The notes under the pieces were generated by a model. It was not told where the DNA came from. It did not search any database and saw only the letters and a program-made list of their open reading frames with translations. DNA of 21,418 nucleotides from Thermodesulfobacteriota bacterium (GTDB taxonomy: Bacteria > Desulfobacterota > Desulfobulbia > Desulfobulbales > SURF-16), in assembly GCA_039715015.1 (NCBI GenBank), contig JBDLIE010000046.1, positions 1 through 21,418 on the forward strand, read 5' to 3'. Position 1 is the first letter of the stretch. The number at the start of each line of letters is the position of its first letter. This document shows, one piece after another, positions 2,472-18,404 of this stretch. Position numbers and translations under genes: made by a program.

Positions 2472-3791
2472 TTAGAAGGTATAGCCAACAATGAGGCTCG
2501 TGACGTTTCTTCTATATTCGTAGAGGTCTTCGTTGGAGATGTTAACGGTGTGGGTATAGCGCCCAGCAAGCCTCCATTTCTTTGACAGGGTATAGCCCAG
2601 CTGCAGGGAGGCCTCGTAGCGCTCCTCGCTTCGATCTGGGCTGCTGGTGAGATCATAGACGCTGTCGCGGTAGCTGGCGGCAAGGGTTATATAAAATTTG
2701 TCAACTGGGTACAGTTCGATTCTGGCCTTTATAAGATGGCGGCGTGGTGAGGAGTCTTTAGCGCGGCGATCATTTTCTTCAAAGCTGTAGCCGGCAACCA
2801 GGCTGTGGGCACCGTGCCTTGCTGAAAATTCTGTTGTTGCCTGGTGTTGCCAGCCCTGCAGGTAATCATACTGGGAATTAAGAATATCCTGGTATTTTGC
2901 CTCGTAACGCAGGCGGACGGACAAGGCATGGCCGAGAGGTCGCTTGACCTCCAGGTTGAAAATGGGGCTTTGGGAATAGCTCGCATCATCCCATAAAACA
3001 TAGTTGTATCCTGTGCCGCCCTCAAGGTGAAATGTCCCAGCTTTTTTTCGATATTTCCCTTCCAGCCTCAAACTGCCCACGTCATATTCATTAAGTTCGG
3101 TATAGTCACGAAAGGAGAGGCTTCCCTGCAGAAATGGGCCTTCACTAACAGAGTTTCCCAAGAAAGGGCTGCGAACAAAGGTGAATATGTCTGCAAAGCT
3201 ATCCTCCTCTTCGCTGTTTAACTCCAGGTCATCACCCTCGATCATTGAAACATTATCGTCATAGCCTGATTCCAAGGCGGAATAGGAAGTCCAGCTGTCA
3301 AGCAGCCCCTGTCTGCTCAGGATCCTACTGAGAGCGGTTTTGGAAAGAAGGAGGATTTTGCTATCCTTGCTGCCGGCAGTGGCAATGGATTTTTTTAGCC
3401 AGGAGATAGCTGACCCTGAGTCACCCTGTTTTTCTGCCAGCACGGCCAGGTTATAATAGGCCAGAGCCGCCATTTTGGGGAATGTTGCGGTCTGTAGAAA
3501 GGCCTCTTTGGCCTTCTCGTAGAGCCCTAATTTATAGGCGCACACCCCGATATTATAGAACAGGGCCGGCTTATTAAGTCCTTCAGCCTGGGCCTGTTTA
3601 AAAAGGGACAGGGCCTGGGCAAAGTCGCCTTTTTTAAAAGAGGTTTGGCCTTGCTGAAAGGATGATGATGGCGAAATATTTTCTGCTCGAACGGTATGGT
3701 GGTTGATGAGTTGACAAAAAAGGAGCAGGGCGCTCCCCAAGAAAATAGGGTGGTGCTTTAAGAGCTGTATTGATGTTGTGACAAGTTGCAA
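2472..3791 (-). CDS. TPR domain plus outer-membrane beta-barrel protein
   Basis: Signal-like N-terminus, TPR motifs (ALFYNIGVCAYKLG, LAYYNLAVL), GYDDNV barrel start, amphipathic strands, terminal GYTF. Start codon uncertain. Confidence 0.8.
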   Translation of the reverse strand: MQLVTTSIQLLKHHPIFLGSALLLFCQLINHHTVRAENISPSSSFQQGQTSFKKGDFAQALSLFKQAQAEGLNKPALFYNIGVCAYKLGLYEKAKEAFLQTATFPKMAALAYYNLAVLAEKQGDSGSAISWLKKSIATAGSKDSKILLLSKTALSRILSRQGLLDSWTSYSALESGYDDNVSMIEGDDLELNSEEEDSFADIFTFVRSPFLGNSVSEGPFLQGSLSFRDYTELNEYDVGSLRLEGKYRKKAGTFHLEGGTGYNYVLWDDASYSQSPIFNLEVKRPLGHALSVRLRYEAKYQDILNSQYDYLQGWQHQATTEFSARHGAHSLVAGYSFEENDRRAKDSSPRRHLIKARIELYPVDKFYITLAASYRDSVYDLTSSPDRSEERYEASLQLGYTLSKKWRLAGRYTHTVNISNEDLYEYRRNVTSLIVGYTF

Positions 3792-3891
3792 AATAGCTTT
3801 CTTCTCTATAAAGGCTGCTTGCTTGGCGCGGGAATCCTGAGAAGCTTACAGGTTAATGAGAACTTTGCAATATTTACAAGAGGGGTGCGAC

Positions 3892-3939
3892 AAAAAGCCA
3901 TCCAGCCACGCTTGAATTGGCCGTGGCTGGCTGGCTTTT
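3892..3939 (-). terminator. Intrinsic terminator-like hairpin upstream of the TPR/barrel gene
   Basis: CCAGCCACG/CGTGGCTGG stem extended by AAAAGCCA/TGGCTTTT. Confidence 0.6.
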
Positions 3940-3952
3940 GAGGGTGGTCGTC

Positions 3953-3982
3953 TGAGGTTTTCTCTCAGCAGAGAAAACCTCA
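3953..3982. repeat. Perfect 13-bp hairpin
   Basis: TGAGGTTTTCTCT-CAGC-AGAGAAAACCTCA. Confidence 0.7.
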
Positions 3983-4013
3983 AAACAGAGTGCTGGCAAG
4001 GGGTAAGTGGGGC

Positions 4014-4415
4014 TTAGCGGCCTTTCTTTTGCCCTATTTCATCATTGATGACACCGCGTTTGGCCTCTTCGGCCTCCTGTTGCGCTTCAATGATCTCGTT
4101 GATGATCTCATTTTGAACCGTGGCAGGAGAACCCTCCTCCTGGTGGAGAGGCGAGGCATCACCGCCTTGGCGGATTCGCCGTTCATTTCTGATCTGTTCC
4201 CTGTGCATTTCCCTGACCGGCAGCTTGATGACATTGGTAATGTCGGAGGAGGAGTCAGCATCTTCGTCAAGCATTTCCATGGTGACATCAAGCTCCAGGC
4301 TATTGGCCGCCATGATAATGACATCCCCATGTAGAAAAGGACCTGCCGCATGGGAGAAAGCAGGTGCTAAAGCGAGAGCAATAAGGGCTGAACAAAAATA
4401 AATAAATTTTCTCAT
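4014..4415 (-). CDS. Secreted acidic hypothetical protein
   Basis: MRKFIYFCSALIALALAPAFSHA signal peptide; follows anti-sigma gene on the same strand; GAGG upstream. Confidence 0.75.
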   Translation of the reverse strand: MRKFIYFCSALIALALAPAFSHAAGPFLHGDVIIMAANSLELDVTMEMLDEDADSSSDITNVIKLPVREMHREQIRNERRIRQGGDASPLHQEEGSPATVQNEIINEIIEAQQEAEEAKRGVINDEIGQKKGR

Positions 4416-4453
4416 AGGAGACCTCGTCAAACCGTGCAAGTGGTGCTAACTGC

Positions 4454-5134
4454 CTAGGCTGTGTGGGGCATATAATGCCCCTTTCGGGTTAACTCGTCAT
4501 TATAAACCGTCATGACAAGGGAGAGCATTTTACTTTTATTGTCATGGCTTATGTGGGTAATGAGTTCGGCTGTTCCCCGGCTTTTAGCAACGAGGGGGAG
4601 GTTGAGCAGATTTTTGCCTTTGCGGAGGTTGGTGTTCCAGCGTATTTCCCTTTGGCCGGGAAAACCTGCCATCTCAAGCTGGGTTGGAAGCTCAATAACA
4701 ACATCGGCCTGGAAGAGGTCACGGGGGGCGCGGACTACAACCTGGACAAGGCGCTCTTCGTGAATTTTGATATTGATGGCGTGGCTGCTGCTCGGTGGCT
4801 GGACAGCTGGCGTGGTCTGGTTAACCGGAGTTGCCACCATGAGCCAGAAAGCCAAACAGGCAGCAACAGCACCTCCCCAATAGGGCATGGCCTTTTTGAT
4901 TTGTTGCTTCTTGTGACGGGCCCTGGCCGTTGCAAAAGATCGTTTAACAAAGTCCGGGTTTGGCGGCGGCACAGGCAGGCGGCGCAGGGCTTTAAGCAGC
5001 TCTTCATCGCGTTGGAACTCATTACGGCACTCAGAGCAGCTGAACAGATGCTGCTGAAGCTCTAATGTTTCCCCGGCACTGAGGGTTCTGTCCAGATAGT
5101 CATCCTTATTAATGAGTGCTTGTTGGCAATCCAT
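4454..5134 (-). CDS. Membrane-bound anti-sigma factor, zf-HC2 type
   Basis: N-terminal Cys plus HLFSCSEC (HxxxCxxC), one TM segment, periplasmic domain; directly after ECF sigma. Confidence 0.9.
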   Translation of the reverse strand: MDCQQALINKDDYLDRTLSAGETLELQQHLFSCSECRNEFQRDEELLKALRRLPVPPPNPDFVKRSFATARARHKKQQIKKAMPYWGGAVAACLAFWLMVATPVNQTTPAVQPPSSSHAINIKIHEERLVQVVVRAPRDLFQADVVIELPTQLEMAGFPGQREIRWNTNLRKGKNLLNLPLVAKSRGTAELITHISHDNKSKMLSLVMTVYNDELTRKGHYMPHTA

Positions 5135-5156
5135 AGGTTTATACCTCTAAAATCAA

Positions 5157-5183
5157 TAACGCCTACTTATCAGGAACGGTTCC
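5157..5183 (-). promoter_or_regulatory. ECF-type promoter inside the sigma gene 3' end, facing the anti-sigma gene
   Basis: GGAACC-N16-CGTTA on minus strand. Confidence 0.7.
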
Positions 5184-5732
5184 TTGGTCCAGAAAATTTC
5201 GTAATTGAACTCGGGCCCGGTGAATTCTGGATTTGAGGGTGCCCACCGGAGTGTCGAGGATTTCCTCAAGCTCGGCCAGGGTATAGCCCTCGACATAGTA
5301 GAGCAGACATAGGTGCTGCTGGTCCTGGTTTAAAGAATGTATAGCCGCTTGCAGGCGTGCCCTGGTTTCATTCTCTTCTGTGCCCTCTTCCGGCCCTGCT
5401 TTTGGGCTGGGGATGAAGTCAACAATGTCAACCTCACTGTTTTTACCTTTAACTACCAGCTGGAGAGGTGAGCGCTTATTCTTCCGTTGCTGGTCCAGGA
5501 AGGTTCGATAGAGGACCTTGGCTAACCATGGCCCCAATTTTTCTATGTCAAGCAATGTCCTCTGTTTTGGATAGAGCTTTACCAAAACGTCTTGGACCAG
5601 ATCTTCGGCGTCGTCCACATTTCCGGTAAGGCGAAATGCCAGTCGATACAGGCGCTGCATATGGGGCCGTAGAACCGATTCAAAATTCGCAGTTCGGCTG
5701 TGTGAATGTATAAGGCTAATAACTTTTTCCAT
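5163..5732 (-). CDS. ECF RNA polymerase sigma-70 family factor
   Basis: DAEDLVQDVLVK, WLAKV, and region 4 TLAELEEILDTPVGTLKSRIHRAR; start placed at ATG 5732 (GAGGG upstream). Confidence 0.93.
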   Translation of the reverse strand: MEKVISLIHSHSRTANFESVLRPHMQRLYRLAFRLTGNVDDAEDLVQDVLVKLYPKQRTLLDIEKLGPWLAKVLYRTFLDQQRKNKRSPLQLVVKGKNSEVDIVDFIPSPKAGPEEGTEENETRARLQAAIHSLNQDQQHLCLLYYVEGYTLAELEEILDTPVGTLKSRIHRARVQLRNFLDQGTVPDK

Positions 5733-5746
5733 AAAACGTACCCTCA

Positions 5747-5773
5747 TAACGTCCAAACCTGTGAGATGGTTCC
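5747..5773 (-). promoter_or_regulatory. ECF autoregulatory promoter
   Basis: GGAACC-N16-CGTTA on minus strand, same boxes and spacing as at 5157-5183. Confidence 0.75.
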
Positions 5774-5853
5774 CTCCTGCCGAGAAAAGTTAAGATTATT
5801 CTTTTTTTACACCCTAACAACTAGAAGTATTTTTTTAAATAATGTAGAGATAA

Positions 5854-5880
5854 GGAACCTTTTATGGAAATTTGCCGTGT
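5854..5880 (+). promoter_or_regulatory. Divergent ECF-type promoter
   Basis: GGAACC-N16-CGTGT upstream of the 5948 ORF. Confidence 0.55.
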
Positions 5881-5947
5881 TGTTAAACAGAGCGCTGAAC
5901 TCAACCAGACGTTCTTAACGTATTAGCCTGGGGGGAGGGCCGTATAT

Positions 5948-6193
5948 ATGAGTTATTATGTATCATCACTGACCCTGCTGCAAAGCAGTAATTGCCCTTA
6001 TGCCTTTTCGTGCCTGAAAAGTGGAGAGTGTGCTTCTCCGGCTCGATGTGAAATGACAGAGGTGAACAGCTCAATGGTACTTCTCTCAAATACGAAATCA
6101 CTGGAAACATGTCCCTATCGCCTGGGTGTCGGTCTCAGGCAGTTTTGCGTATGTCCGACTTTTGTCGAACTAAGCCAACAAAAAAGGACATAA
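5948..6193 (+). CDS. Small Cys-rich hypothetical protein
   Basis: GGAGGG RBS; 81 aa with seven Cys (CPYAFSC..C..C..CPY..CVCP). Confidence 0.65.
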   Translation: MSYYVSSLTLLQSSNCPYAFSCLKSGECASPARCEMTEVNSSMVLLSNTKSLETCPYRLGVGLRQFCVCPTFVELSQQKRT

Positions 6194-6257
6194 AGGATGA
6201 AAACGTTTATCCGCTACGATGAAGGATAGACAGGTAAGATCACCGTGGAGAAAAAAT

Positions 6258-6560
6258 ATGAAAAAGCACAATATAGTCGCAGTGGCAATGGTTTGTTGTC
6301 TTACTCTGGCATCCTCTTTGGCCATGGCCCGCGGCGGTGGTGGCGGTAGAGGCGGCGGCGGAAATGCCGGCGGTGGACCTGGTGCTGGATATGGAGGGAG
6401 TGAAAACCACTATCAACATCGTTATGAACACCAGTACCAATATAGAAAAAATGGTGAGCAGCGCGGTGACATGGATCGTGACCGGCAACGCTACAGAGAT
6501 TCGGATATTGAAAAAGAGTCAGCCAAGCAAAAGGCCAAGGGCAAAATGGTTGACGAATAA
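6258..6560 (+). CDS. Secreted Gly-rich low-complexity protein
   Basis: GGAG RBS before MKKHNIV; signal peptide ending AMA; poly-Gly then HYQHRYEHQYQYR and DRDRQRYRD tracts; terminator follows. Confidence 0.8.
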   Translation: MKKHNIVAVAMVCCLTLASSLAMARGGGGGRGGGGNAGGGPGAGYGGSENHYQHRYEHQYQYRKNGEQRGDMDRDRQRYRDSDIEKESAKQKAKGKMVDE

Positions 6561-6609
6561 AATGAGAGTAATGAAAGATTGAAATTCCCCCCAATGGGAC
6601 TTTCTCTTT

Positions 6610-6647
6610 GGCCGCATCCTTTTTTTATTAAGGATGCGGCCTTTTTT
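6610..6647 (+). terminator. Intrinsic terminator
   Basis: GGCCGCATCCTT/AAGGATGCGGCC 12-bp stem plus T6. Confidence 0.85.
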
Positions 6648-6828
6648 ATGAATGAGGCAACCAAATCTGCCAGCCATCGTTAAAGAAGATATAACAGACA
6701 GCAGGGAACCTGCCGGGCCGCAATCTTAACTTGCGCAATGTCCTGGTGCTCTACATGCTGTTTTTCTGCCGCCCCGGAAAGTTGAGAAGCTCTCGCGAGG
6801 TGGCATTTCTTTAACAAGGAGAAGTATC

Positions 6829-7227
6829 ATGAAAAAGATCATCACCACCTTTTCCCTTTGCCTGGCCCTGGCTGCCGGCCCCGTTCTTGCCCACCATCCT
6901 GCAGCGGATATCGTGGATCAGGAAATCTACGAGATGATTGATTCCATGGTGGCCGAGACGCCCCATGCTGATCTGGTTTTTGATGAAGAGATGGGAAACA
7001 CAACCATCACCGCAGATTCTGTCAGTGCAGCAGAAGATCTCATTGATGATGGCTTGCTTGCAACCCTCTCTCTGCTTGATGAGGGGGTGACGGTTACCAT
7101 TACCTTTGGAGAGGATGTAGAGACAAAGAGCAGCAGCGCAGAAGAGTCTGTCAAAGATGGCTGGACAGAGATGAATGATTGGGGAGTGGAGGTGTTTTTT
7201 ACCGTTGATACCATTCTCAAGGAATAA
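6829..7227 (+). CDS. Secreted acidic hypothetical protein, predicted mature N-terminus His-His-Pro
   Basis: AGGAG RBS; signal peptide ...GPVLA|HHPAADIVD; terminator follows. Confidence 0.85.
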   Translation: MKKIITTFSLCLALAAGPVLAHHPAADIVDQEIYEMIDSMVAETPHADLVFDEEMGNTTITADSVSAAEDLIDDGLLATLSLLDEGVTVTITFGEDVETKSSSAEESVKDGWTEMNDWGVEVFFTVDTILKE

Positions 7228-7735: not shown

Positions 7736-7857
7736 AGAACAACAGCCCTGGGAGCAACGGAAAAGAACCATTTTTTCTTTGACTCTTGCCAAGTGAGCAG
7801 GGCAACATAAGGGTATGGAAAGGCTATTTCAGCACATGCAAAGAAATGGTGAACAAC

Positions 7858-8199
7858 ATGCCCCTTAGACATTTTCCGCAAGGCGTGAAGGAGTTTGCCC
7901 TTCAGGCCTATTCAAGACCCAAGGATAAAAGTCAGTTGCGTGAAACCCACGTTGCCTTCACCGGCACGCCGCAAAAGCATTATTATGATGCGGACAAGGT
8001 CATCCTGGTCACTGATGCCTTCAGCAGCAATACCTTTTATTATGAATTTCTGGCCAAGGATATCTCCTTTGTCGAAGAGATGGGCACCACCGTCAATATG
8101 GAGGGTGAGGCCCTGCCCATTATGCGCCTCTGGGTGAAGAAGAAAAGTATTGGTGTCCGCTGCACGCCTTTTGTGGTGGCAGATACCTTCACCCGCTGA
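7858..8199 (+). CDS. Conserved hypothetical protein
   Basis: Globular-looking ORF (THVAFTGTPQKH, DAFSSNTFYYEF, RLWVKK, TPFVV); start at ATG 7858 after GGTGA; no catalytic motif recognised. Confidence 0.7.
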   Translation: MPLRHFPQGVKEFALQAYSRPKDKSQLRETHVAFTGTPQKHYYDADKVILVTDAFSSNTFYYEFLAKDISFVEEMGTTVNMEGEALPIMRLWVKKKSIGVRCTPFVVADTFTR

Positions 8200-8435: not shown

Positions 8436-8574
8436 TTGCAATTATGCAATCGTTTCCTCTTTGCATAATTGCAAGGGCGCAAGGCGTGCACCGTCTCGAC
8501 CGGAGATGCGATGCTGGTAACTGTTTGGAATTAAAGGTGAAGGGTGTGGGAAATGCCTGTGGCATACAAAGTGT
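8436..8574 (+). promoter_or_regulatory. Sigma54 promoter P1: paired UAS, IHF-like site, degenerate -24/-12
   Basis: TTGCA-ATTA-TGCAA 8436; TTGCA-AGGG-CGCAA 8469; extra site 8461; IHF-like 8518; TGGCAT with GG 8561-N10-GT. Confidence 0.7.
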
Positions 8575-8641
8575 ATATGGAGATATCAAAGGACAATGAA
8601 AGAAGAAGTTTAAGAGTAACCTTTGCCACAGGGGAAAGAGC

Positions 8642-9079
8642 ATGAGCCATTATCTGATTTTCTTAGCGATTATTCCTATTGCCTGTTTTCAACTTGCAAA
8701 AATGTACGCACCCTGTCGCCTGTGGCTTCTTACTGGTCTGTCAGCCGGACTGGTCATTGCTCCGGTGAGTCAGGGCCTGGTTGAATACACTCTAATTCCT
8801 GTCATCGGTGGCTGCATAGGGATTATCGGCACCATGTTTAACCTGGTCCACGGGTCGGTGGGCTATTTCTTTCTGGCTGCGCTGGGCACGTTTGAGTCGG
8901 GCACGGTCTTGAACGCCTCCGAGCTTGCCCTGATGAATGTGATCAATGCCGTTATCTGGACGACCTACTACGGTGTTGTTGGCTACAGGATGGATCTGAG
9001 GTTTTCCAGAAAGGCGGAGAGCAAATACATCGCCGCTGCCGGCGCAAAGCTCAAGCACAGCGAAGAATATTTACAATAA
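8642..9079 (+). CDS. Integral membrane hypothetical protein (paralog A)
   Basis: Several hydrophobic segments; gap-free alignment to 10209-10628. Confidence 0.85.
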   Translation: MSHYLIFLAIIPIACFQLAKMYAPCRLWLLTGLSAGLVIAPVSQGLVEYTLIPVIGGCIGIIGTMFNLVHGSVGYFFLAALGTFESGTVLNASELALMNVINAVIWTTYYGVVGYRMDLRFSRKAESKYIAAAGAKLKHSEEYLQ

Positions 9080-9170
9080 TAACAAAGGGGTGGGGCTGGT
9101 CATATTCCGACTAAATGCACAGGGTATTGGTCTGCCAGGGGGCCAGGTGCGCCCCACCTGATGACCTGGA

Positions 9171-9218
9171 AAAGCGGTTTTCTGCAGCCTGCAACAGGGT
9201 AGATAGCCGCTTTTTTTT
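9171..9218 (+). terminator. Intrinsic terminator-like hairpin
   Basis: AAAGCGGTT...AGCCGCTTT stem with T8. Confidence 0.6.
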
Positions 9219-9245
9219 GCTCACAATCTGGCTGCCGGTTCATTA

Positions 9246-9259
9246 TTGCAACTATGCAA
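9246..9259. promoter_or_regulatory. Single UAS-type palindrome upstream of the PAS-HTH gene
   Basis: TTGCA-ACTA-TGCAA; no partner site at 33 bp. Confidence 0.65.
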
Positions 9260-9364
9260 TTCAATGGCGCAGAGCGGATGACGGCTATAAAAGCGCGAGG
9301 CGCTTTGTCTATAACGCCTCTAAGCAGAACAGAATATCAAACAGGATGAGTGGGGCCACAGGTT

Positions 9365-9952
9365 ATGAACGATGAAGATTCTTATATTTCTCCTGAAGAT
9401 ATCCTGGAGAGTCTGGCTGATCCTGTATTCACAGTGGATAACACCTTAAAGATCACCTCCTTTAATAAAGGTGCTGAAAATATTTCAGGCTTATCCCGCC
9501 AGCAGGCATTGGGACAACCCTGCGATACGATCTTTCGTTCCACCCTCTGCCACCATAATTGCCCTTTAAAAAAGACCCTTGCAAAGGGCAATTCAACACT
9601 GGTGAGCGGTGTTTTTATTACCAACCACCATGGAGAGCAGGTGCCAGTGCATGTCTCGGCCGCATTGTTGCGAAATTGCAAAAACAAGGTGATTGGCGGT
9701 GTTGGCACCTTTCAGGACCTCCGCCTTCTTAATGGAGATGTGGACAGTATGGAGCAGGCTGTCCAGGCCTGTGAGGCCCAGACAATTCTAACGGCACTCC
9801 ATAAAAACAATAACAATCGGGCCGCTGCCGCCCGTGATCTGGGGATCCATAAGAGCACCTTCTTCAGGAAAATCAAAAACCTGGGCATTGACCTGCCCCA
9901 GGCCGCTGGTCGATTCCGGTCCGGCGCCTCCCCAGGTAATTCTTCCCCTTGA
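9365..9952 (+). CDS. PAS(CX8CX3C)-Fis HTH regulator lacking the AAA+ domain
   Basis: ILESLADPVFTVD...CDTIFRSTLCHHNC...GGVGTFQD joined by a short linker to EAQTILTALHKNNNNRAAAARDLGIHKSTFFRKIK. Confidence 0.88.
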   Translation: MNDEDSYISPEDILESLADPVFTVDNTLKITSFNKGAENISGLSRQQALGQPCDTIFRSTLCHHNCPLKKTLAKGNSTLVSGVFITNHHGEQVPVHVSAALLRNCKNKVIGGVGTFQDLRLLNGDVDSMEQAVQACEAQTILTALHKNNNNRAAAARDLGIHKSTFFRKIKNLGIDLPQAAGRFRSGASPGNSSP

Positions 9953-9958
9953 CCAGTG

Positions 9959-10098
9959 TTGCAATTGTGCAATTCAAGCCCTGGGGATGCATTGCAATGG
10001 CGCAACATATTCAAACCAGGGGGAGAGATGTCTTGCTGGCTAACATGATGATTTTATAGAAATTAATTGGAGAGTAAGGGTGCTGGCACACTAACTGC
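9959..10098 (+). promoter_or_regulatory. Sigma54 promoter P2: paired UAS, IHF-like site, -24/-12
   Basis: TTGCA-ATTG-TGCAA 9959; TTGCA-ATGG-CGCAA 9992; IHF-like 10041; TGGCACACTAACTGC (GG 10085). Confidence 0.85.
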
Positions 10099-10208
10099 AA
10101 ACTTATCCAGTTAACCTCTTAAGGCATAGTTTTTGTTGAAAGAGGCCCGATAACGAAAATCAATTTCGCGTTTTACGGCATAGTAACCATTTTTGAGGAG
10201 GTAAGATC

Positions 10209-10628
10209 ATGAGCCAATATTTAATCCTTTTAGCGATCATCCCGTTATCTGTTTTTAATCTGACCAAAATGTTTATGCCCGGCAGGAGGTGGCTGCTGTC
10301 AGGCCTTGCCGCCGGCTTAGTGATTGCCCCGGTGAGCATGGGGCTTATCGAATTTACCTATGTTCCCATCATCGGCAAGGCCTTGGGGCTTGTCGGTGTT
10401 GTCGGCAACCTGATCCACGGGTCTGTGGGCTATTTCTTTCTGGTCAGCTTCGGCGGCATGGAGCCTGGTGTTTTGCTGACAGCTTCCCAACTTGTCACCA
10501 TTAACCTGGTAAACGCCGCTATCTGGGGCTCTTACTATGGCATGGTTGGTCATAATATTGATGCAAAACTTGCCACAGAAGAGAAGCCGGTGGAGGTCCA
10601 CGAGGCCCTGAAGCAGAAGGCAGTTTGA
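10209..10628 (+). CDS. Integral membrane hypothetical protein (paralog B)
   Basis: GAGGAGGT RBS; shares AGLVIAPVS and HGSVGYFFL with paralog A. Confidence 0.88.
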   Translation: MSQYLILLAIIPLSVFNLTKMFMPGRRWLLSGLAAGLVIAPVSMGLIEFTYVPIIGKALGLVGVVGNLIHGSVGYFFLVSFGGMEPGVLLTASQLVTINLVNAAIWGSYYGMVGHNIDAKLATEEKPVEVHEALKQKAV

Positions 10629-10715
10629 AAAAAGACGCATTTCCCGGCCCAGCAGATGCTTGGAGCAGGAAACAGGGAAAAACAAATTTTATTCTTATAA
10701 GAAGGAGAGCGGCTC

Positions 10716-10946
10716 ATGGTGGATTTTTCAGGTAGCAAAGTGAGAAATGATCAAGCAGCCCTTGATGGCAATTCACATCGGGCGGAAATGGGCGACGACA
10801 TGGGTCTGGCAGGCATAACTGTCGTCATTGCCCTGGCCAGCTTGATAGGTTTATGGGGTCTTAGCTGTCTGGCATCTGGACTGATTAAGAGCGGTGGCAT
10901 CATCGGTCTTGGCACTTCCTGGATTTCAGCTGTCTTCGGTTTCTAG
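10716..10946 (+). CDS. Small membrane protein
   Basis: AGGAG RBS; polar N-terminus, Gly-rich TM helix (LIGLWGLSCLASGL) and amphipathic C-terminal helix. Confidence 0.75.
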   Translation: MVDFSGSKVRNDQAALDGNSHRAEMGDDMGLAGITVVIALASLIGLWGLSCLASGLIKSGGIIGLGTSWISAVFGF

Positions 10947-11169
10947 GCCTTTCGTTTTCCTAAAGTGGTTGGTGGCATACCTGGACGTGCCTGCCTACAT
11001 GGGTGATGTGGAAAGATGTCTTCCTTCCGCGTCACCCTTCGTACGTCTGGACTGGCGGCACTTTCTAAGGAGTTTCAGGAGGTGGTTTCTCTTTTCAGCC
11101 CCCTTCATATCTTCCCCTGGCAGATTGAATTTCGTAGTGCTCAAAAATGAAACACGTCAGCCATGTTGT

Positions 11170-11211
11170 GACCACGGACAGAGTTGCAGATCTGCAACTC
11201 TGTCCGTGGTC
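11170..11211. repeat. Perfect 42-bp palindrome centred on a UAS site
   Basis: GACCACGGACAGAGTTGCAGA|TCTGCAACTCTGTCCGTGGTC, no loop, no mismatch. Confidence 0.95.
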
Positions 11212-11322
11212 TATGGTTGCGCATATGCAACCCTGCTTGAGGGAGGCTGGGCCTGGTTTCGAGTTTAATTGTTTGATATTAAAGGGCTTTTGAGAAACAC
11301 ACGCAGGTGGCACACATGATGC
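11184..11322 (+). promoter_or_regulatory. Sigma54 promoter P3: paired UAS, consensus IHF site, -24/-12
   Basis: TTGCA-GATC-TGCAA 11184; TTGCG-CATA-TGCAA 11217; TATCAAACAATTA (minus, 11266-11278) fits WATCAAN4TTR; TGGCACACATGATGC (GG 11309). Confidence 0.88.
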
Positions 11323-11407
11323 AATTTATAGTCGGAGAAGACATTTTGCGACCTGTGAGAAATGAGGTTTATAACTTTTTAAAAGAGTCCGAGGAGATCA
11401 TGCAAAA

Positions 11408-12511
11408 ATGAAAAAACTCAAGAAATTGACAAGACCCATAGGCTTCTGTTTTCTTTTTGTTTTTTGGCTGTGGCCTGCAGTGGGACTGGCAGTTGATAAC
11501 TCAGAATGCCTCGACTGTCATAGCGATGAAGGGTTGACACGAGAGACACCTAACGGCGGCGATGTCCAGGAAAGTCTTTTTGTCGATGGCGACAAGTTTA
11601 ACCACTCTGTTCATCATCTCAATGATATAGGCTGTGTTGATTGCCACGCCGATATTGAAGAGTTGGACTACGATGCAGACCTCCCCCACAAAAAAGATCT
11701 GGAACAGGTGGAATGCTCATCATGCCACGGGGAAGAGGCCGAGGCCTTTGCCAACAGTGTCCACATGAAAATTCGCAGCAAGGGTATCACCATGACCTGC
11801 TACGCCTGTCACGATTATCATTATGTCAGTCACCTGGCAGCCGCCTCGGTTGCCGAGCGGGAAAATAATTTTTGCGCCAAATGCCACAACCCTTACCAGG
11901 GCCATGATTGGCTGCCCAAGAAAGCGGAACATTTTGCCTTTGTCGAATGTACGGTCTGCCATGCCCCTGAGGTGCCGCGCCACATCCATCTTAAGTTTTT
12001 CGACCTGGTCACTAATAAATATTATAAGGGCGACGAGATCCTTGAAATTTTAGGGATCAGCGATGATGAGTTTATGGCTGTCCTCGACCAAGATAAGGAC
12101 GGCACCATTGGCAGGAAAGAGTTTGAGATTCTTGAGTTCATGCTGCGCCAAAAAAATGTGCATGCCATTTTCCATGTCGAGTTGGTGGCGGAAACAGAAG
12201 CGGTGGCCCACCAGGTAAACCGGGGCGTGGCTGAACGCAGCTGTGAAAAATGCCATACTGCGGACTCCCCTTACTTTAACGCCGTGACCATAGTTCTGGC
12301 CAATGAGGATGGCAGTGTCGACCACCACCAGGTGGAGCTCTCAGTGCTTGAGAGCTACAGCCTCAGGCATTTTTACCTCTATGCCGGCACCAGGGTGAAG
12401 CTCCTTGACATGATAGGCATTGTCCTGCTTGGCGGCGCGGCCTGTGGCGTGCTGGGCCATCTCACCATCCGGATTTTGACCATGCGCCTGCGCCGTAAAA
12501 AAGACAACTAA
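11408..12511 (+). CDS. Membrane-anchored heptaheme cytochrome c with EF-hand loop (CbcA-like)
   Basis: Signal peptide; seven CxxCH (CLDCH, CVDCH, CSSCH, CYACH, CAKCH, CTVCH, CEKCH); DQDKDGTIGRKE; C-terminal His-containing TM helix. Confidence 0.92.
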   Translation: MKKLKKLTRPIGFCFLFVFWLWPAVGLAVDNSECLDCHSDEGLTRETPNGGDVQESLFVDGDKFNHSVHHLNDIGCVDCHADIEELDYDADLPHKKDLEQVECSSCHGEEAEAFANSVHMKIRSKGITMTCYACHDYHYVSHLAAASVAERENNFCAKCHNPYQGHDWLPKKAEHFAFVECTVCHAPEVPRHIHLKFFDLVTNKYYKGDEILEILGISDDEFMAVLDQDKDGTIGRKEFEILEFMLRQKNVHAIFHVELVAETEAVAHQVNRGVAERSCEKCHTADSPYFNAVTIVLANEDGSVDHHQVELSVLESYSLRHFYLYAGTRVKLLDMIGIVLLGGAACGVLGHLTIRILTMRLRRKKDN

Positions 12512-12513
12512 AC

Positions 12514-12620
12514 GTAACGGCCCAGCAGCGCCCCATCTGTGTTCGAGCCGCCTTGCTCAGCTAGAAAGCTATTGATCGCCAGCCTGCTTGAACAGATCCG
12601 GAGCACTGCAAAACCGTTAC
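12514..12620. repeat. Long imperfect intergenic hairpin (MITE/REP-like)
   Basis: GTAACGG/CCGTTAC ends; inner GCAG/CTGC and ATCTGT..TCGAGC/GCTTGAACAGAT arms. Confidence 0.55.
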
Positions 12621-12685
12621 AACTTGAGCTGTTCTTGCACCTGAATAGTTGCAACTAAATTTACATGAGAAGAGGAGGCTTAGTG

Positions 12686-13303
12686 ATGAGCGATAACATG
12701 ATATACATTCACCCGGCGCCTGTCCGGGTCTGGCACTGGATTCACGCCGCAGGTATTGTGGCGCTGGTTGTAACCGGCTTTCAAATCCGCTATGCTGAGA
12801 TGCTGGCTATTATGCCCTTAAAGGATGCGATAACTCTCCATAATTATGTGGGATTTGTGGTAATAGCCGATTATTTCGTCTGGCTGTCCTTCTATCTTGG
12901 CACGGGTAAGATCAGGATCTATTTTCCTGATCTGCGTACCTTTGTGGCCAATGCCATCGGCCAGGCAAAATATTATGGTTTTGGCATCTTCAAGGGAGAT
13001 CCCAACCCCCATGTGATGAGCCCTGAAAACAAATTCAATGCCCTCCAGCAAAAGGCCTATTTGGGGTTGATGTTTCTCCTCCTGCCGGCCCAGATGATCT
13101 CCGGCGTTTTTTTGTGGCGGGTCAAGGGCTATGCCGATTACGTCCACTTTCTGGGCGGTATCAAAATTATTGATACCATCCATGTCATCCTCTTTTTCTT
13201 TTTCGCATCGTTTCTCATTGCCCATTGCTATCTTGCCACCTTGGGCCATACGCCGCTGGCCCATTTCAAGGCCATGTTCACCGGCTATGAGGAGCACCAT
13301 TAA
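12686..13303 (+). CDS. Cytochrome b/b6-domain membrane protein (CbcB/PhsC-like)
   Basis: RVWHWIHA, LHNYVG, KFNALQQKAY, IHVIL...IAHCY heme-b His pattern; GAGGAGG RBS places start at 12686. Confidence 0.92.
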   Translation: MSDNMIYIHPAPVRVWHWIHAAGIVALVVTGFQIRYAEMLAIMPLKDAITLHNYVGFVVIADYFVWLSFYLGTGKIRIYFPDLRTFVANAIGQAKYYGFGIFKGDPNPHVMSPENKFNALQQKAYLGLMFLLLPAQMISGVFLWRVKGYADYVHFLGGIKIIDTIHVILFFFFASFLIAHCYLATLGHTPLAHFKAMFTGYEEHH

Positions 13304-13391: not shown

Positions 13392-15863
13392 CTATTCTTT
13401 CTTCTTCTTTTTCCCCACCGGAAAATCGATCTGATACTTCTTCATCTTGCGCCACAGGGTGGTTTTCTCGACACCGAGATGGGCGGCGGTCTTGCCCCGG
13501 TTGCCATTAAATTTTTGGAGGGCGGCCAGGATGGTGCCGGCCTCGGCGTTGGAAAGGGGGGTGGCAGTTTCGCCGGCCATGCTGGTTAAGGGCTGCTCAT
13601 GCACTGGATCTCTGAGGCCCTCGGGCAGGCAGTCCACGTCAATCTGGCCGCCATGACAGAGGACAAAGGTGTATTCAATGATATTTTCCAGCTCCCTGAT
13701 ATTGCCGGGAAAATCATGGCGCATGAGGATATTGATCACCTCGGCTGAGGCGGATTCAATATTTTTTTGCTTGAGAGTGTTGAATTTGTGGATGAAGTGG
13801 TCAACAAGGATAGGGATATCCTCCCTTCTTGCTGACAGGGGGGGGAGAGCGATTTTGATAACGTTGAGACGAAAGAAGAGGTCCTCGCGAAAGAGTCCCT
13901 CGTCGGCCAGCTCTTTAAGGTTTTTATTGGTGGCGGCAACCACCCGCACATCAGCCTTCACGGTTGTTGTGCCGCCCAGGGGTTCATACTCTTTCTCCTG
14001 GAGAACGCGGAGAAGTTTGAGCTGCAGGGCCGGCGAAATATCACCTATCTCATCAAGAAAGATAGTCCCTCCCTCGGCCAAGGCAAAACGTCCGGGTTTG
14101 TCCGCCTTGGCCCCGGTAAAAGCCCCTTTTTTGTAGCCGAAGAGTTCGGATTCAAGCAAGGTGTCGGGCAGGGCCGCACAGTTTAAGGCAACATACGTGC
14201 CCGGCCTTTCGGTCAGGTTGTGAATGGCCTTGGCAAAAAGCTCCTTACCGGAACCGCTTGGGCCCTCGATGAGAACGGTGCTGTCGCTTTTGGCGATATT
14301 GGGCAGGATGGCGAAGATATTCTTTATCTTATGGTTCTTGCTGATGATGTCCTGGAAGCTGTAGTTGTCGGTAATCTCCTTGCGTAACTCCTCCATGGCC
14401 GAGCAGTCACGGAAGGTTTCAACGCCGCCGATGGCAACGCCATCATCGTCACGCAAGGCTGAAGTTGTGACATTAATGGGGACCAGTTGGCCGTCCTTAT
14501 TGGTGATGGTAACCTTGAGGTTGGTCACCTCTTCACCGGTCTCCATGGATTGCTTGAGGACGCAGGAGTCTTTACAGATATTGGCCTTAAAAACGTCATA
14601 ACATTTTTTGCCGATGGCATGGCGCCTCTTGAAGCCGGTGATATGTTCGGCGGCCCTGTTAAAGGAGGTGATGAGCCAGTTCTTGTCCACGGTAAAGGCG
14701 CCGTCACCGATGGAATCAAGGATGCAGTCACTCAAGGAAAGCTCCTTGCGAAGCCCCTCAATGGCCGAGGTGTCACGGAAGGTCTCCACGCCGCCGATAA
14801 TCTCCCCCTCCTCATTACGCAGCACGCAGGTGTTAACCCGGATAGGAACCTTGTCGCCTTCGATATCCTTAATGGTGACCTTGAGATCATGAACGTCAAG
14901 GCCTGTTTCCATGGATTTTTTCAGGGCGCAGGATGATTTGCAGATATCGGCCTTAAAGACCTCATGGCATTTCATGCCAATGGCCTCAGAACGGTGGACG
15001 CCGGTGATGTCTTCGGCCGCCTTGTTGAAAGAGGTAATGACCCAGTCATGGTCCACGGAAAAGGCGCCGTCTGCTATGGAGTCGAGGACGCTGTCGCTCA
15101 GAGAAATATTCTGGCGCATTTTCTCAAGGGTCGAAATATCGCGGAAGGTCTCAACGCCGCCGATAACCTCAAAGTTTTCATTCCTGAGCACAGAGGTGGT
15201 GACCATGATGGGGATCTTGTCACCCTCGATATCCTGAATAGTAACCTTGAGATTGGTAACGTCGCGTCCGGTTTCAATGGACTGCTTGAGGGCGCATGAG
15301 GACATGCAGATATCGGCCTTAAAGACCTCGTAGCATTTTTTGCCAAGGGCATCGGAGCGATGGATGCCGGTGATCTCCTCCGCCGACTTATTAAAGGAGG
15401 TGATGCGCCAGTTCTTGTCCACGGAAAAGGCGCCATCGGCAATGGACTCCAGGATGCTGTCGCTCAGGTTATTCCGGCATTGTTCAGCGCTGCCTGAATT
15501 TTCCCGGAAGGTTTCCGCCCCGCCCTTGAACTCCCCTTCTTCATCATAAAGAGCCGTGCTGTAGGCAATGACCGGGACCTCTACCTCATGGGCTATTATG
15601 GCAATATTGTGACTGACGATCTTTTCGCCAAGCTTCAACGATTGCTTGAGGGCGCATGATGATTTGCAGATATTGCTTTGAAAAACGTCATAACATTTTT
15701 GGCCCACCACATCCCAACGCTTGATGCCGGTTATCTTTTCCGCAGCCCTGTTAAAGGAGGTGATATTGAAATCTTTGTCCACCGTAAAGGCAGGGTCAAC
15801 AATGGAATTGAGGGAGCTGATCGTGAACCGGGTGTCCGGCTTCGGGAGGCTGGTGTTGTCCAT
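13392..15863 (-). CDS. Sigma54-dependent activator, 4xPAS-AAA+-HTH (OrpR-like)
   Basis: Four PAS repeats each with CX8CX3C; GPSGSGKE, ESELFGYKKGAFTGA, FLDEIGD, FPGNIREL, Fis HTH; divergent from the ORP-like operon. Confidence 0.95.
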   Translation of the reverse strand: MDNTSLPKPDTRFTISSLNSIVDPAFTVDKDFNITSFNRAAEKITGIKRWDVVGQKCYDVFQSNICKSSCALKQSLKLGEKIVSHNIAIIAHEVEVPVIAYSTALYDEEGEFKGGAETFRENSGSAEQCRNNLSDSILESIADGAFSVDKNWRITSFNKSAEEITGIHRSDALGKKCYEVFKADICMSSCALKQSIETGRDVTNLKVTIQDIEGDKIPIMVTTSVLRNENFEVIGGVETFRDISTLEKMRQNISLSDSVLDSIADGAFSVDHDWVITSFNKAAEDITGVHRSEAIGMKCHEVFKADICKSSCALKKSMETGLDVHDLKVTIKDIEGDKVPIRVNTCVLRNEEGEIIGGVETFRDTSAIEGLRKELSLSDCILDSIGDGAFTVDKNWLITSFNRAAEHITGFKRRHAIGKKCYDVFKANICKDSCVLKQSMETGEEVTNLKVTITNKDGQLVPINVTTSALRDDDGVAIGGVETFRDCSAMEELRKEITDNYSFQDIISKNHKIKNIFAILPNIAKSDSTVLIEGPSGSGKELFAKAIHNLTERPGTYVALNCAALPDTLLESELFGYKKGAFTGAKADKPGRFALAEGGTIFLDEIGDISPALQLKLLRVLQEKEYEPLGGTTTVKADVRVVAATNKNLKELADEGLFREDLFFRLNVIKIALPPLSARREDIPILVDHFIHKFNTLKQKNIESASAEVINILMRHDFPGNIRELENIIEYTFVLCHGGQIDVDCLPEGLRDPVHEQPLTSMAGETATPLSNAEAGTILAALQKFNGNRGKTAAHLGVEKTTLWRKMKKYQIDFPVGKKKKKE

Positions 15864-15973: not shown

Positions 15974-16109
15974 TTGCAACATTGCAATTAAGGGTACTGT
16001 AATGAATTGCAGGTGCGCAAGCTTAGGTTTATAGGACTCAGCCGTTGCCCGTCTAACTATCTGTAATTAAAGGAGATAATAATTGGCCCGCCGCTGGCGC
16101 ATAATGTGC
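15974..16109 (+). promoter_or_regulatory. Sigma54 promoter P4: paired UAS, IHF-like site, -24/-12
   Basis: TTGCA-ACAT-TGCAA 15974; TTGCA-GGTG-CGCAA 16007; IHF-like 16054; TGGCGCATAATGTGC (GG 16096). Confidence 0.85.
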
Positions 16110-16153
16110 AAGATAGAAAGTAGCTATTTATAAACGTTATGAGGTGAACAGAG

Positions 16154-16624
16154 ATGAGAATTGTAATTTCCAGTACAGGAGCCAATCTTAAAGCAGATGT
16201 TGATCCCCGTTTTGGCAGAGCGGCCTTCCTGCTTCTTTATGACACGGACAAAAAAGAAGTGGTGGAGGTAATCGACAATGGCGAAGGACAGGATGCCGCG
16301 CAAGGAGCAGGGATCAGCGTTGCCAGCCTCTTGGCTCAAAAAGGCGTTGCCGTGATTATAACTGGTCGGGTTGGTCCCAAGGCCATGAAGGTAGTGAGAA
16401 AGGCGGGAATCAAGGTGGTCTCCAATGCCACAGGCACGGTGGAGGGTGCCGTTTCTGGGTTTAGCGGTCAAGGTGCTTCCGGCCAGGATAATGGAGCCCA
16501 GGATGAGAGGAAGGTGCCCGGCGCTGAGTGTCGCCGTCGAAACGTCTGGCAGAAAGGCGGCGGTCCCACCAGGATGGGCCGAGGTTATGGGGGCAGAGGA
16601 CGAGGACAGGTTTCCGGAAGGTAA
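16154..16624 (+). CDS. NifB/NifX-family metal-cluster-binding protein (Orange protein-like) with Gly/Arg tail
   Basis: VDPRFGRA, GAGI, IITGRVGPKA, AGIKV, GTVEGAV; GAGGTG RBS. Confidence 0.9.
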   Translation: MRIVISSTGANLKADVDPRFGRAAFLLLYDTDKKEVVEVIDNGEGQDAAQGAGISVASLLAQKGVAVIITGRVGPKAMKVVRKAGIKVVSNATGTVEGAVSGFSGQGASGQDNGAQDERKVPGAECRRRNVWQKGGGPTRMGRGYGGRGRGQVSGR

Positions 16625-16641
16625 AGGGCGGAGGTGGGCAA

Positions 16642-17469
16642 ATGCAGATAGCTGTTGCCAGTGGTAAGGGCGGGACGGGCAAGACCACGATTTCCACCAG
16701 TCTGGCCCTGTGCGCCCAAGGCGGGGTGCAGTTTCTCGACTGTGACGTGGAGGAGCCTAATGGCCATATTTTTCTTAAGCCTGAGCTGACCGAGAGCAGC
16801 AAACACAGCGTCGCCATTCCCCGTATCGTCACAGAACAATGCTCTTACTGCGGCAAATGCCGTAATATCTGCCGCTTTAATGCCATTACCATGTTTGGTC
16901 AGACCATTATGGCCTTTTCAGAACTCTGCCACTCCTGTCTCGGCTGCTTTTTGGTGTGCGAGGAGAATGCCATTGTTCATGATTCACGGGAGGTCGGTGT
17001 TCTGGAGCAGGGGCAGGCAGGTGAGATCGCCTTTGTCCATGGCAGAATTCGGGTGGGGGAGGCCATGGCAGTTCCGCTGATTAACGAGGTAAAGAAAAAG
17101 GCGAATAAGGCAGATCTGGTTATCATTGATGCGCCTCCCGGAACCTCCTGTCCCTTTGTGGAGGCGGTATCTGGGGCAGATTTTGTCCTCCTGGTCACAG
17201 AAGCCACCCCCTTTGGTCTCCATGATTTGAAACTGGCGGTGCAGGTGTTGAGAACTTTTGCCAAGCCATGCGGGGTGCTTGTTAACCGTTCCGACCTCGG
17301 TGATGACCGGCTGGAAAAATGGTGCCAGGTGGAAAATATACCGGTTCTGCTAAAAATTCCCTTTGATCGAACCATTGCCGAAGGCTATGCCCGCGGAGAT
17401 ACCCTGCTGCAAAGCAGGCCTGATCTACGTCAGCCACTGGAAAATCTACTCCAGGAGATTGTCCAATGA
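16642..17469 (+). CDS. MinD/CobQ-like P-loop ATPase with ferredoxin insert
   Basis: MQIAVASGKGGTGKTT, DCDVEEPN, CSYCGKC..IC, CHSCLGC..VC, DAPPGTSCP; GGAGGT RBS gives start 16642. Confidence 0.93.
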   Translation: MQIAVASGKGGTGKTTISTSLALCAQGGVQFLDCDVEEPNGHIFLKPELTESSKHSVAIPRIVTEQCSYCGKCRNICRFNAITMFGQTIMAFSELCHSCLGCFLVCEENAIVHDSREVGVLEQGQAGEIAFVHGRIRVGEAMAVPLINEVKKKANKADLVIIDAPPGTSCPFVEAVSGADFVLLVTEATPFGLHDLKLAVQVLRTFAKPCGVLVNRSDLGDDRLEKWCQVENIPVLLKIPFDRTIAEGYARGDTLLQSRPDLRQPLENLLQEIVQ

Positions 17470-18404
17470 AAGAAATAGTCGTTTTAAGCGGAAAAGGCGG
17501 CACCGGCAAGACCACCCTGTTGGGATCTCTGGCCTGCCTGGCTGAAAACAAGGTGCTGGCAGATTGTGATGTCGATGCGGCAGATCTTCACCTCCTCCTG
17601 GCCCCTGAACATCGGAGCGAAAATGAGTTCCGTTCCGGGGTCAAGGCCCGGGTGGCGTCAGATAAATGTACAGGATGCGGTACCTGCCAGGAGTTATGCC
17701 AGTTTGGGGCCATTGATGTGGTCTCATGCGCTGCGGTTGACACTCTGGCCTGTGAGGGTTGTGGAGTCTGCGCCTATTTCTGCCCAGAGCAGGCCATCCA
17801 TTTGGATAAGAATCATTGCGGCACCTGGTATATCTCTGATACTGACTATGGCCCCTTAGTCCATGCCCAACTCTTTGCCGGAGAGGAAAATTCCGGCAAA
17901 CTGGTCTCTTTTGTCAAGGGGCAGGCCCGCCAGCTGGCTGAAGATAGCGGCGCCGACTTCATATTGGTTGATGGCGCACCGGGTATTGGTTGTCCGGTGA
18001 TCGCCTCCCTGTCAGGGGCCGATGCCATGGTGGCGGTGACTGAGCCGACCCTGTCGGGCTGGCACGATCTGGTCAGGGTTCTTGATCTGGCCGATCATTT
18101 CCAGGTGCAGGCCTTTGTCTGCCTCAATAAATGGGATCTCAATCCGGAAATTGCTGCTGTTGTGACAGAGCGCTGTCTGCAGAGAGGTGTTGATATTTTA
18201 GGGCGCATTCCTTTTGATCCGGCCGTGATTACTGCTCAGTTAAAGGGCCGGCCTGTGGTGCTCACCGACTCTCTGGCGGCAACGGCTCTAAGGGCAGTGT
18301 GGCCGGTTTTGCATGGGAAAGTAATCAATACTTTTTCCGAGCTGTCAGGGCCCAAGGTTGCCTTTCCCGCCCCTTCTTATCAGGGTGAAATGCGCCTCGG
18401 TTGA
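17466..18404 (+). CDS. MinD/CobQ-like P-loop ATPase with ferredoxin insert (second paralog)
   Basis: SGKGGTGKTT, DCDVDAADLHL, CTGCGTC..LC, CEGCGVC..FCP, GEENSGKLV, DGAPGIGCPV; ATGA overlap. Confidence 0.93.
   Translation: MKEIVVLSGKGGTGKTTLLGSLACLAENKVLADCDVDAADLHLLLAPEHRSENEFRSGVKARVASDKCTGCGTCQELCQFGAIDVVSCAAVDTLACEGCGVCAYFCPEQAIHLDKNHCGTWYISDTDYGPLVHAQLFAGEENSGKLVSFVKGQARQLAEDSGADFILVDGAPGIGCPVIASLSGADAMVAVTEPTLSGWHDLVRVLDLADHFQVQAFVCLNKWDLNPEIAAVVTERCLQRGVDILGRIPFDPAVITAQLKGRPVVLTDSLAATALRAVWPVLHGKVINTFSELSGPKVAFPAPSYQGEMRLG

Follow-up and report, generated by a model that had tools for sequence, protein, structure and literature searches.

Among described systems, the closest to the protein considered here is OrpR (DVU2106) of Desulfovibrio vulgaris Hildenborough, a σ54 activator whose PAS domain carries a [4Fe-4S] cluster (PMC8359166, PMC3897727). 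In these papers, C52, C61, and C65 of OrpR are required for redox sensing, DNA binding is unchanged by oxidation, and the PAS domain acts negatively on activation (PMC8359166); the gene itself is transcribed by σ70 and autorepressed (PMC3897727). The window, by which we mean the whole 21,418-nucleotide stretch of DNA analyzed (Table 1), encodes a PAS-HTH protein, the mini-regulator, that shares with OrpR the PAS type, three equally spaced cysteines, and a neighborhood of orp-type genes; in both systems, sites are paired about 32 bp apart. It differs from OrpR in lacking an AAA+ domain, and whereas OrpR is the sole regulator of its operons and under σ70 control, the mini-regulator coexists with a paralogous activator and its gene is found mostly under a σ54 promoter. 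The D. vulgaris OrpR site, GGCGCA-N3-TGCGCC, has a three-base core, against four bases in the sites of the window.

A second precedent is the DVU2960/DVU2956 pair of D. vulgaris, in which a GAFTGA-defective EBP likewise lies inside a σ54 operon that is run by its intact neighbor. In DVU2960, however, the AAA+ domain is still in place, with a single substitution (GAFPGA), and EMSA showed no binding to the enhancer (PMC4641369); this absence of binding at the enhancer of its own operon counts against reading the mini-regulator as a competitor. The NtrC proteins of Caulobacter and Rhodobacter capsulatus and Vibrio VpsR resemble the full-length relatives described below in that the σ54-contact loop is lost, DNA binding is kept, and repression is possible, but they keep the AAA+ domain and act at σ70 promoters, and the source describes no competition with a paralog for one enhancer (PMC10274813).

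PAS domains joined to an HTH without an AAA+ domain are found in PpsR/CrtJ, EL222, and VqmA; nothing about these regulators points to an OrpR-type ancestry or to an opposing action on a σ54 activator. PpsR/CrtJ has several PAS domains with a redox cysteine, the sensor of EL222 is a flavin, and that of VqmA is an autoinducer. The PAS plus HTH_8 layout is itself not new, since the protein atlas holds such clusters at 200–320 residues; both GAFTGA-less bEBPs and PAS plus Fis-HTH layouts are already known. The anti-activators FleN, NifL, and PspA damp σ54 activators by binding the activator itself; they are unrelated proteins, not cut-down paralogs that would bind the activator's DNA sites. In the literature searched, which took in few subscription papers, no description was found of an AAA+-deleted OrpR or of a comparable paralog pair. 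If the interpretation favored below is right, σ54 transcription at the locus would be held in check by a naturally motor-less paralog, which the activator itself induces and which then competes with it for the enhancer, a mode of control that we did not find described in that literature.

Table 1. Positions of the mini-regulator gene, its neighbors, and associated sites in the window
Feature	Position	Strand	Remarks
memA enhancer pair	8436–8482		Sites 33 bp apart (8436, 8469); offset copy at 8461
Predicted σ54 promoter of memA	8560–8575	+	TGGCAT...TGTA; may read through into the mini-regulator gene
memA	8642–9079	+	145-aa hydrophobic protein, memB paralog
Terminator-like hairpin with U-tract	9168–9218	+	Between memA and the mini-regulator gene; z −3.4; similar in G003, G004, L098
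Lone enhancer-type site (9246–9259) with overlapping 8-bp-offset site at 9237	9237–9260		Candidate operator of the mini-regulator gene
Mini-regulator gene	9365–9952	+	195 aa; PAS ~9398–9721, short helical linker, Fis-type HTH ~9773–9877; no AAA+
CX8CX3C motif	9521–9562	+	Spacing as in the Fe-S-associated cysteines C52/C61/C65 of OrpR
Intragenic site copy	9668–9681		Codons L-R-N-C-K; also in G004, L098, L100
Enhancer pair (9959, 9992) and predicted σ54 promoter (10084)	9959–10099	+	memB and 76-aa gene
memB (10209–10628) and 76-aa small hydrophobic protein (10716–10946)	10209–10946	+	
Composite enhancer pair (11184, 11217) and predicted σ54 promoter (11308)	11183–11323	+	G-TTGCR-N4-YGCAA-C; cytochrome operon
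Multiheme cytochrome c (11408–12511) and PhsC-like cytochrome b (12665–13303)	11408–13303	+	
Replacement activator	13392–15863	−	Four CX8CX3C PAS domains, intact AAA+ (GAFTGA), HTH LGVEKTTLWRK
orp-side enhancer pair (15974, 16007) and predicted σ54 promoter (16095)	15974–16110	+	Without the OrpR-type outer G
orp-type genes	16154–18404	+	NifX-like protein and two MinD/4Fe-4S ATPases

Architecture of the Mini-Regulator

The open frame spans positions 9350–9952, and the ATG at 9365, which is kept in relatives, is the likely start. Pfam assigns to the 200-residue frame a PAS domain (residues 17–124) and an HTH_8 domain (residues 142–176; E 1e-6, above the cutoff) and finds no σ54-interaction domain. 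Of the features that define a bEBP, the C-terminal Fis-type HTH is present, and the AAA+ domain (PF00158) with its Walker A/B motifs and the GAFTGA loop for contact with σ54 are absent. Because the AAA+ domain is absent, the mini-regulator cannot activate σ54; judged by its sequence, it is neither a bEBP nor a functional OrpR but a descendant of OrpR.

The CX8CX3C cysteines correspond to C53, C62, and C66 in the numbering of the 195-residue protein. The proposed fourth ligand, an Asp or Glu two residues past the first cysteine, is replaced by Thr, with Asp at the +1 position. An AlphaFold model (mean pLDDT 82.7, pTM 0.58) predicts a PAS fold from which a single long helix, residues 119–147, runs to the HTH; the fold matches of this model include EL222 and VqmA, and the structure search found no solved structure of a close relative. 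Against the PpsR/CrtJ model TIGR02040 the protein scores 20.2 bits versus a cutoff of 275.4, with only the HTH part aligned.

The preliminary description of this DNA had proposed a clean PAS-HTH frame devoid of AAA+ with an intact CX8CX3C motif, and both points hold. It had also likened the HTH to that of the neighboring activator; the two strings that it quoted are correct, but the lineage of the HTH is that of OrpR, and only 22 of 55 residues are identical to the activator.

Descent from the OrpR Lineage

The HTH of the mini-regulator is of the HKST(F/L)FRK type, which groups with OrpR-type proteins and not with the neighboring activator. Identity across the HTH region falls from 42/55 with GAFTGA-dead full-length examples to 39/55 with intact examples, 31/55 with OrpR-type examples, and the value given above for the activator of the window. 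In trees built from PAS and HTH, the activator clade is separate (support 99–100). An origin by duplication of the neighboring activator is rejected by the HTH identity and the tree, and at the DNA level the two genes resemble each other over no more than about 66 bases (73%). By these sequence comparisons, the mini-regulator descends from the OrpR lineage and not from the neighboring 4-PAS activator; no second protein of its HTH type was found in this genome. The link to OrpR is also visible in L079:7733–9184, whose PAS matches that of the Desulfobulbus OrpR homologue in Fig. S2 of PMC8359166, a figure in which the PAS region is printed. This protein has the HTH type of the mini-regulator, to which it is 39% identical over the PAS and 57% over the HTH region; its gene, too, is flanked by the site TTGCAACTATGCAA, letter for letter.

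Upstream of memB and the cytochromes, at the place taken by the mini-regulator gene, G015, G033, G031, G024, and G013 (two copies) encode a PAS-AAA+-HTH protein of 470–500 residues with the same HTH. Together with database records, these genomes yield 11 distinct full-length relatives, and the GAFTGA loop is destroyed in all of them; the DE pair of Walker B remains in 5 of them, and only 1 has kept both arginine fingers. What the GAFTGA, Walker B, and arginine-finger motifs do is well established. Purifying selection persists in the AAA+ domains of these dead forms (dN/dS 0.20), a hint that they serve some other purpose. Intact proteins of the OrpR HTH type adjoin the same cytochrome cluster in seven genomes (G017, G048, G104, G050, G113, G142, G181), and many intact OrpR-type genes flank orp genes. 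Two tandem GAFTGA-dead copies, each with its own σ54 promoter and its own memB, are present at L066:6419–11156 (G013). The single database records P0147 and P0148 are related activators with partial internal AAA+ deletions, which may be assembly errors or separate events.

One tree places short and dead forms together on one side of a branch (support 94, not starred); in the second, three short forms fall within the dead clade, and the main short clade has no resolved position. Both are quick trees of 164 columns, G036 and G227 being absent from the second and five further rows (four outgroup rows and one duplicate) from the first. Several independent deletions are not claimed: the second tree separates the short forms from one another and their junctions are not all alike, yet in the AU test a single short-form clade is not rejected (p 0.60). 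Because the second tree does not put the clade of this genome within the dead clade, the dead intermediate is directly seen only for short forms of the G022 type.

Co-occurrence with the Replacement Activator

Sequence closely matching the C-terminal part of the window's activator is present in 12/12 genomes that have a dead or short form. The activator was not found in the seven genomes in which an intact OrpR-type gene lies beside the cytochromes, the search having matched 48 of 251 genomes; this sample is assumed to be the one used for the HTH-type survey, as the group sizes agree. The converse fails, since in at least 10 loci the activator accompanies the cluster with neither a dead nor a short form present. 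The PAS of the mini-regulator is about 40% identical to each PAS of the activator. A split activator, of which the mini-regulator would be one half, was rejected: there is no stand-alone AAA+ among the 25 σ54-type proteins of the genome, all of which have a C-terminal tail of their own (134–177 residues). Two activators of the genome have three or four tandem CX8CX3C PAS domains (window 13392–15863 and C7:59000–61400), and orthologues of the window's activator have between zero and four such motifs.

Conservation of the Short Form

Among 23 reported proteins (of 411 candidates), 18 are PAS-HTH short forms, the record of the mini-regulator itself included (48–83% identity); a profile search adds P0145, and a metagenome scan adds L099 and the frameshifted L100. 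To judge by how the homologues are named, the host is probably an anaerobe of Desulfobulbaceae type. There are 18 other intact short forms, at 48–83% identity, and 7 of 40 genomes of the family have a whole-length match to the short-form profile. Median dN/dS is 0.19 (9 unsaturated of 21 pairs among those seven genomes, dS 1.0–2.6), with 0.11 for the HTH and 0.21 for the PAS, and the activator domains range from 0.10 to 0.18. The recognition helix HKSTFFRK is invariant in 18/18 short forms, the in-frame PAS-HTH junction is identical in 16 of 18 short-form clusters, and CX8CX3C is kept in 17 of 19 short forms. An Asp or Glu at +2 from the first cysteine is present in 14 of the 17 short forms that bear the motif versus 2 of 10 dead forms. 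The metagenome copy L100 has two frameshifts, and L099 is missing the middle cysteine. In three incomplete genomes of the genus neither the short form nor memB was found; G006 and G007 have the activator but gave no memB, and their contigs stop at the locus.

Conservation of the layout under purifying selection, which the preliminary description had named as a check, is what these figures give. It had also considered that relatives might carry a full-length gene at this place, as expected of a recent deletion. A full-length gene does occupy the slot; a recent deletion is nevertheless excluded by the many diverged short forms, the low dN/dS, and the invariant recognition helix. Since the GAFTGA loop of the full-length genes in the slot is already destroyed, the idea of a competitor is strengthened.

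Enhancer Sites and Their Outer Bases

The pattern TTGCR-N4-YGCAA has 13 matches in the 3.0-Mb genome, 11 of which are within the window, and all 6 genome matches to the exact TTGCA-N4-TGCAA are there as well. The window sites comprise four pairs 33 bp apart, the lone site at 9246, one site inside the ORF, and one offset copy; the pairs sit about 90 and 125 bp above the predicted σ54 promoters of memA, memB, the cytochrome c/b operon, and the orp-type genes. The site at 9246 (TTGCAACTATGCAA) had been taken for a single UAS, and indeed no partner is present 33 bp on either side; a lone site is found in five of seven memA-linked loci. Together, 9237 and 9246 probably form the operator of the mini-regulator gene in this genome.

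An exact intragenic site occurs wherever the gene was seen to encode L-R-x-C-K (window 9668–9681, L027:8002, L098:3815, and L100:1813); codon use alone would give it in about 0.056 per case, and it is possibly a third site for memB or a roadblock. Overlapping sites that share a half-site at an 8-bp offset are frequent (window 8461/8469 and 9237/9245), with up to four in a row at L091:11644–11668. A lone site follows the 137-residue gene (window 7786–8199) in three relatives (L027:5180, L026:10436, L100:378). The site at 11184 is at the center of a longer inverted repeat, window 11160–11205 (GACCACGGACAGAG ... CTCTGTCCGTGGTC).

At loci with the replacement activator alone, the sites read A-TTGCA-N4-TGCAA-T, and the sites of the window therefore belong to this activator. 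A de novo search for palindromic motifs was made in 67 promoter regions from 66 loci with an intact OrpR-type activator only and was not seeded with window sequence. It returned GT(C/T/A)GC(A/G)-N4-(T/C)GC(G/A/T)AC, paired 32–33 bp apart. The top seven matches to this motif in the window (11183, 11216, 9958, 9237, 9245, 9667, and 9991) are all window sites, and 6 of the genome's 24 matches of at least 12 bits are on this contig versus 0.17 expected. The earlier proposal of a competitor at the same sites is supported in part, in that the motifs overlap, so that the HTH lineage would recognize the same family of sites, and in that the protein is conserved and non-activating; what is revised is its origin, which is the OrpR lineage and not the activator.

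The outermost base separates the two kinds of site. At intact-OrpR loci, it is G in 56/62 half-sites, with position 2 variable, the 33 promoters counted having been chosen after the motif search. At activator-only loci, it is G in 8/50 half-sites, with T at position 2 in 50/50. The cytochrome promoter of the 14 loci with both proteins has outer G in 46/50 half-sites together with the activator's position-2 T in 50/50, versus outer G in 9/56 half-sites at memB and 2/20 on the orp side; because the genomes are kin, these counts are not independent. Combining the signature bases of both proteins, the cytochrome enhancers look written for two readers, and the pair at 11184/11217 is the best predicted target of the mini-regulator. 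Activator affinity or ancestry may account for part of this composite signal, as activator-only cytochrome promoters already have outer G in 8/20 half-sites and 4/5 of those genomes have an OrpR-type HTH match elsewhere.

Transcription of the Mini-Regulator Gene

At all 10 loci at which the gene does not follow memA (G022, G015, G033, G031, G024, both G013 copies, L101, L103, and L099), a top-scoring σ54 promoter lies upstream of it; an enhancer site precedes this promoter by about 90 bp and is often accompanied by a weaker one another 33 bp upstream. The score is a simple weighting devised for this analysis and compared with the genome background. Such a promoter precedes intact copies at 3/41 metagenome loci and 1/7 genome loci, the background being 0.026 per 700 bp. 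L158, labeled dead by a pattern match but reading GAFTSA, was counted with neither the intact nor the dead metagenome loci. In G005, where memA is absent, a weaker memA-type promoter and an enhancer pair stand directly before the gene. Because OrpR itself is transcribed by σ70 and autorepressed, the dead forms appear to have been rewired into the regulon.

The gene follows memA in the window and in G002, G003, G004, G010, L098, and L100; in this genome a terminator-like hairpin lies between the two genes, and the promoter scan found no σ54 promoter directly upstream of the mini-regulator gene. Here its transcription probably comes from memA-promoter transcripts that leak through the hairpin or from a weak promoter of unmapped position. 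The preliminary description had suggested an autorepressed gene with a possible TTGCTC-N18-CATTAT promoter, of σ70 type, a view at odds with the σ54 promoters of most relatives. The letters are literally present at 9217–9246, but the element is not called by the promoter scan and is kept in only one of four relatives compared, the nearest, and it was rejected as the σ70 promoter of the gene on these grounds; its −35 begins within the U-tract of the hairpin, and the offset site at 9237 includes CATTAT as well. The −12 element of the memA promoter is TGTA, not TGCW, in the window as in G002, G003, G004, G005, G010, L098, and L100, a conserved weak or altered σ54 promoter.

Proposed Role and Alternatives

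From the comparisons above, we consider it moderately likely that the mini-regulator is a motor-less competitor of OrpR lineage, induced by the activator and acting at shared enhancers, with negative feedback mainly at the cytochrome c/b promoter. In the proposed course of events, a paralogous 4-PAS activator would have taken over the cytochrome cluster. The old activator, meanwhile becoming a target within the regulon, would first have been deprived of its σ54-contact loop and then of the entire AAA+ domain. The activator would switch on the cluster and the mini-regulator along with it; the latter would dimerize, fill both enhancer sites, and prevent assembly of the activator there, limiting the response chiefly at the cytochrome promoter. 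Weighing against this reading, besides DVU2960, are the hairpin that stands between memA and the gene in this genome with no σ54 promoter just before the gene, the loci that have the cluster with the activator alone, and the selection still acting on the AAA+ domains of the dead forms. The least certain element is a possible Fe-S cluster of the PAS, for which the case that it gates dimerization and makes the brake redox-responsive is evenly balanced; OrpR binds DNA equally when oxidized, so a sensor that has no AAA+ target has no known output. The full scheme, in which OrpR passed from intact through GAFTGA-dead to motor-deleted and ended as a redox-gated repressor that the activator induces and that selects one promoter via two outer enhancer bases, is possible but doubtful as a whole. 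If it were true, one signal, one kind of sensor, and one set of DNA sites would serve both activator and repressor, giving a redox switch that limits itself, and related genomes would still contain the intermediates of its evolution. With intact, dead, and deleted forms all extant, the conversion of an activator into a repressor is accessible to direct test, and the 195-residue protein is a small natural construct for the way in which an OrpR-type Fe-S PAS passes its signal, a question left open in the OrpR paper (PMC8359166).

That the mini-regulator binds its sites without antagonizing the activator, as an architectural helper, as a σ70-type regulator, or as a repressor of its own gene only, is in our view unlikely. 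Precedents are available, as the GAFTGA-less NtrC of Caulobacter both activates and represses σ70 promoters (PMC10274813) and OrpR represses its own σ70 promoter (PMC3897727), and the lone site above the gene in memA-linked loci and the conserved AAA+ domains of the dead forms are consistent with such roles. Against them stand the OrpR-type outer G on both cytochrome enhancer sites, where the activator must bind, and the proposed σ70 promoter, which is uncalled and poorly kept; and with all strict genome sites except two located in this cluster there is no separate σ70 regulon. Action off the DNA seems improbable: by pairing through PAS or HTH helices the mini-regulator would poison the activator oligomer, or it would soak up the Fe-S clusters destined for the activator's four PAS domains. 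The selection on the PAS, its likeness to every activator PAS, the widely kept cysteines, and the position of the gene within the activator's regulon in relatives would all suit this explanation, but the HTH is the most conserved part, with its invariant recognition helix, and the composite base pattern requires a second reader of the DNA.

It is highly improbable, and already largely refuted, that the gene is a functionless decaying remnant, a recent internal deletion, or half of a split activator. The frameshifts of L100, the cysteine missing from L099, and the three incomplete genomes in which the gene was not found point toward decay. They are outweighed by a dN/dS of 0.19 at dS of at least 1 and the shared in-frame junction; memB, too, was not found in those three genomes, the contigs of G006 and G007 end at the locus, and the C-terminal tails of the 25 σ54-type AAA+ proteins speak against a split.

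Other Features of the Window

The genes for memA, memB, and the 76-residue protein, for which no Pfam or NCBIfam family was found, accompany the cytochrome c/b pair in genomes across the order. The multiheme cytochrome c has a weak EF-hand match, and no catalytic subunit adjoins the pair. Upstream, positions 180–2400 hold several small gene pairs that we take to be toxin-antitoxin-like modules, beside which a tRNA-Arg is located at 2319–2395. They are followed at 2472–7227 by an ECF sigma factor, a zinc-finger anti-sigma factor, a TPR/beta-barrel protein, and small exported proteins, an arrangement that is syntenic within the genus. Near the opposite end, the 233-residue ORF at 20358–21059 presumably encodes a protein resembling a REP-associated tyrosine transposase.
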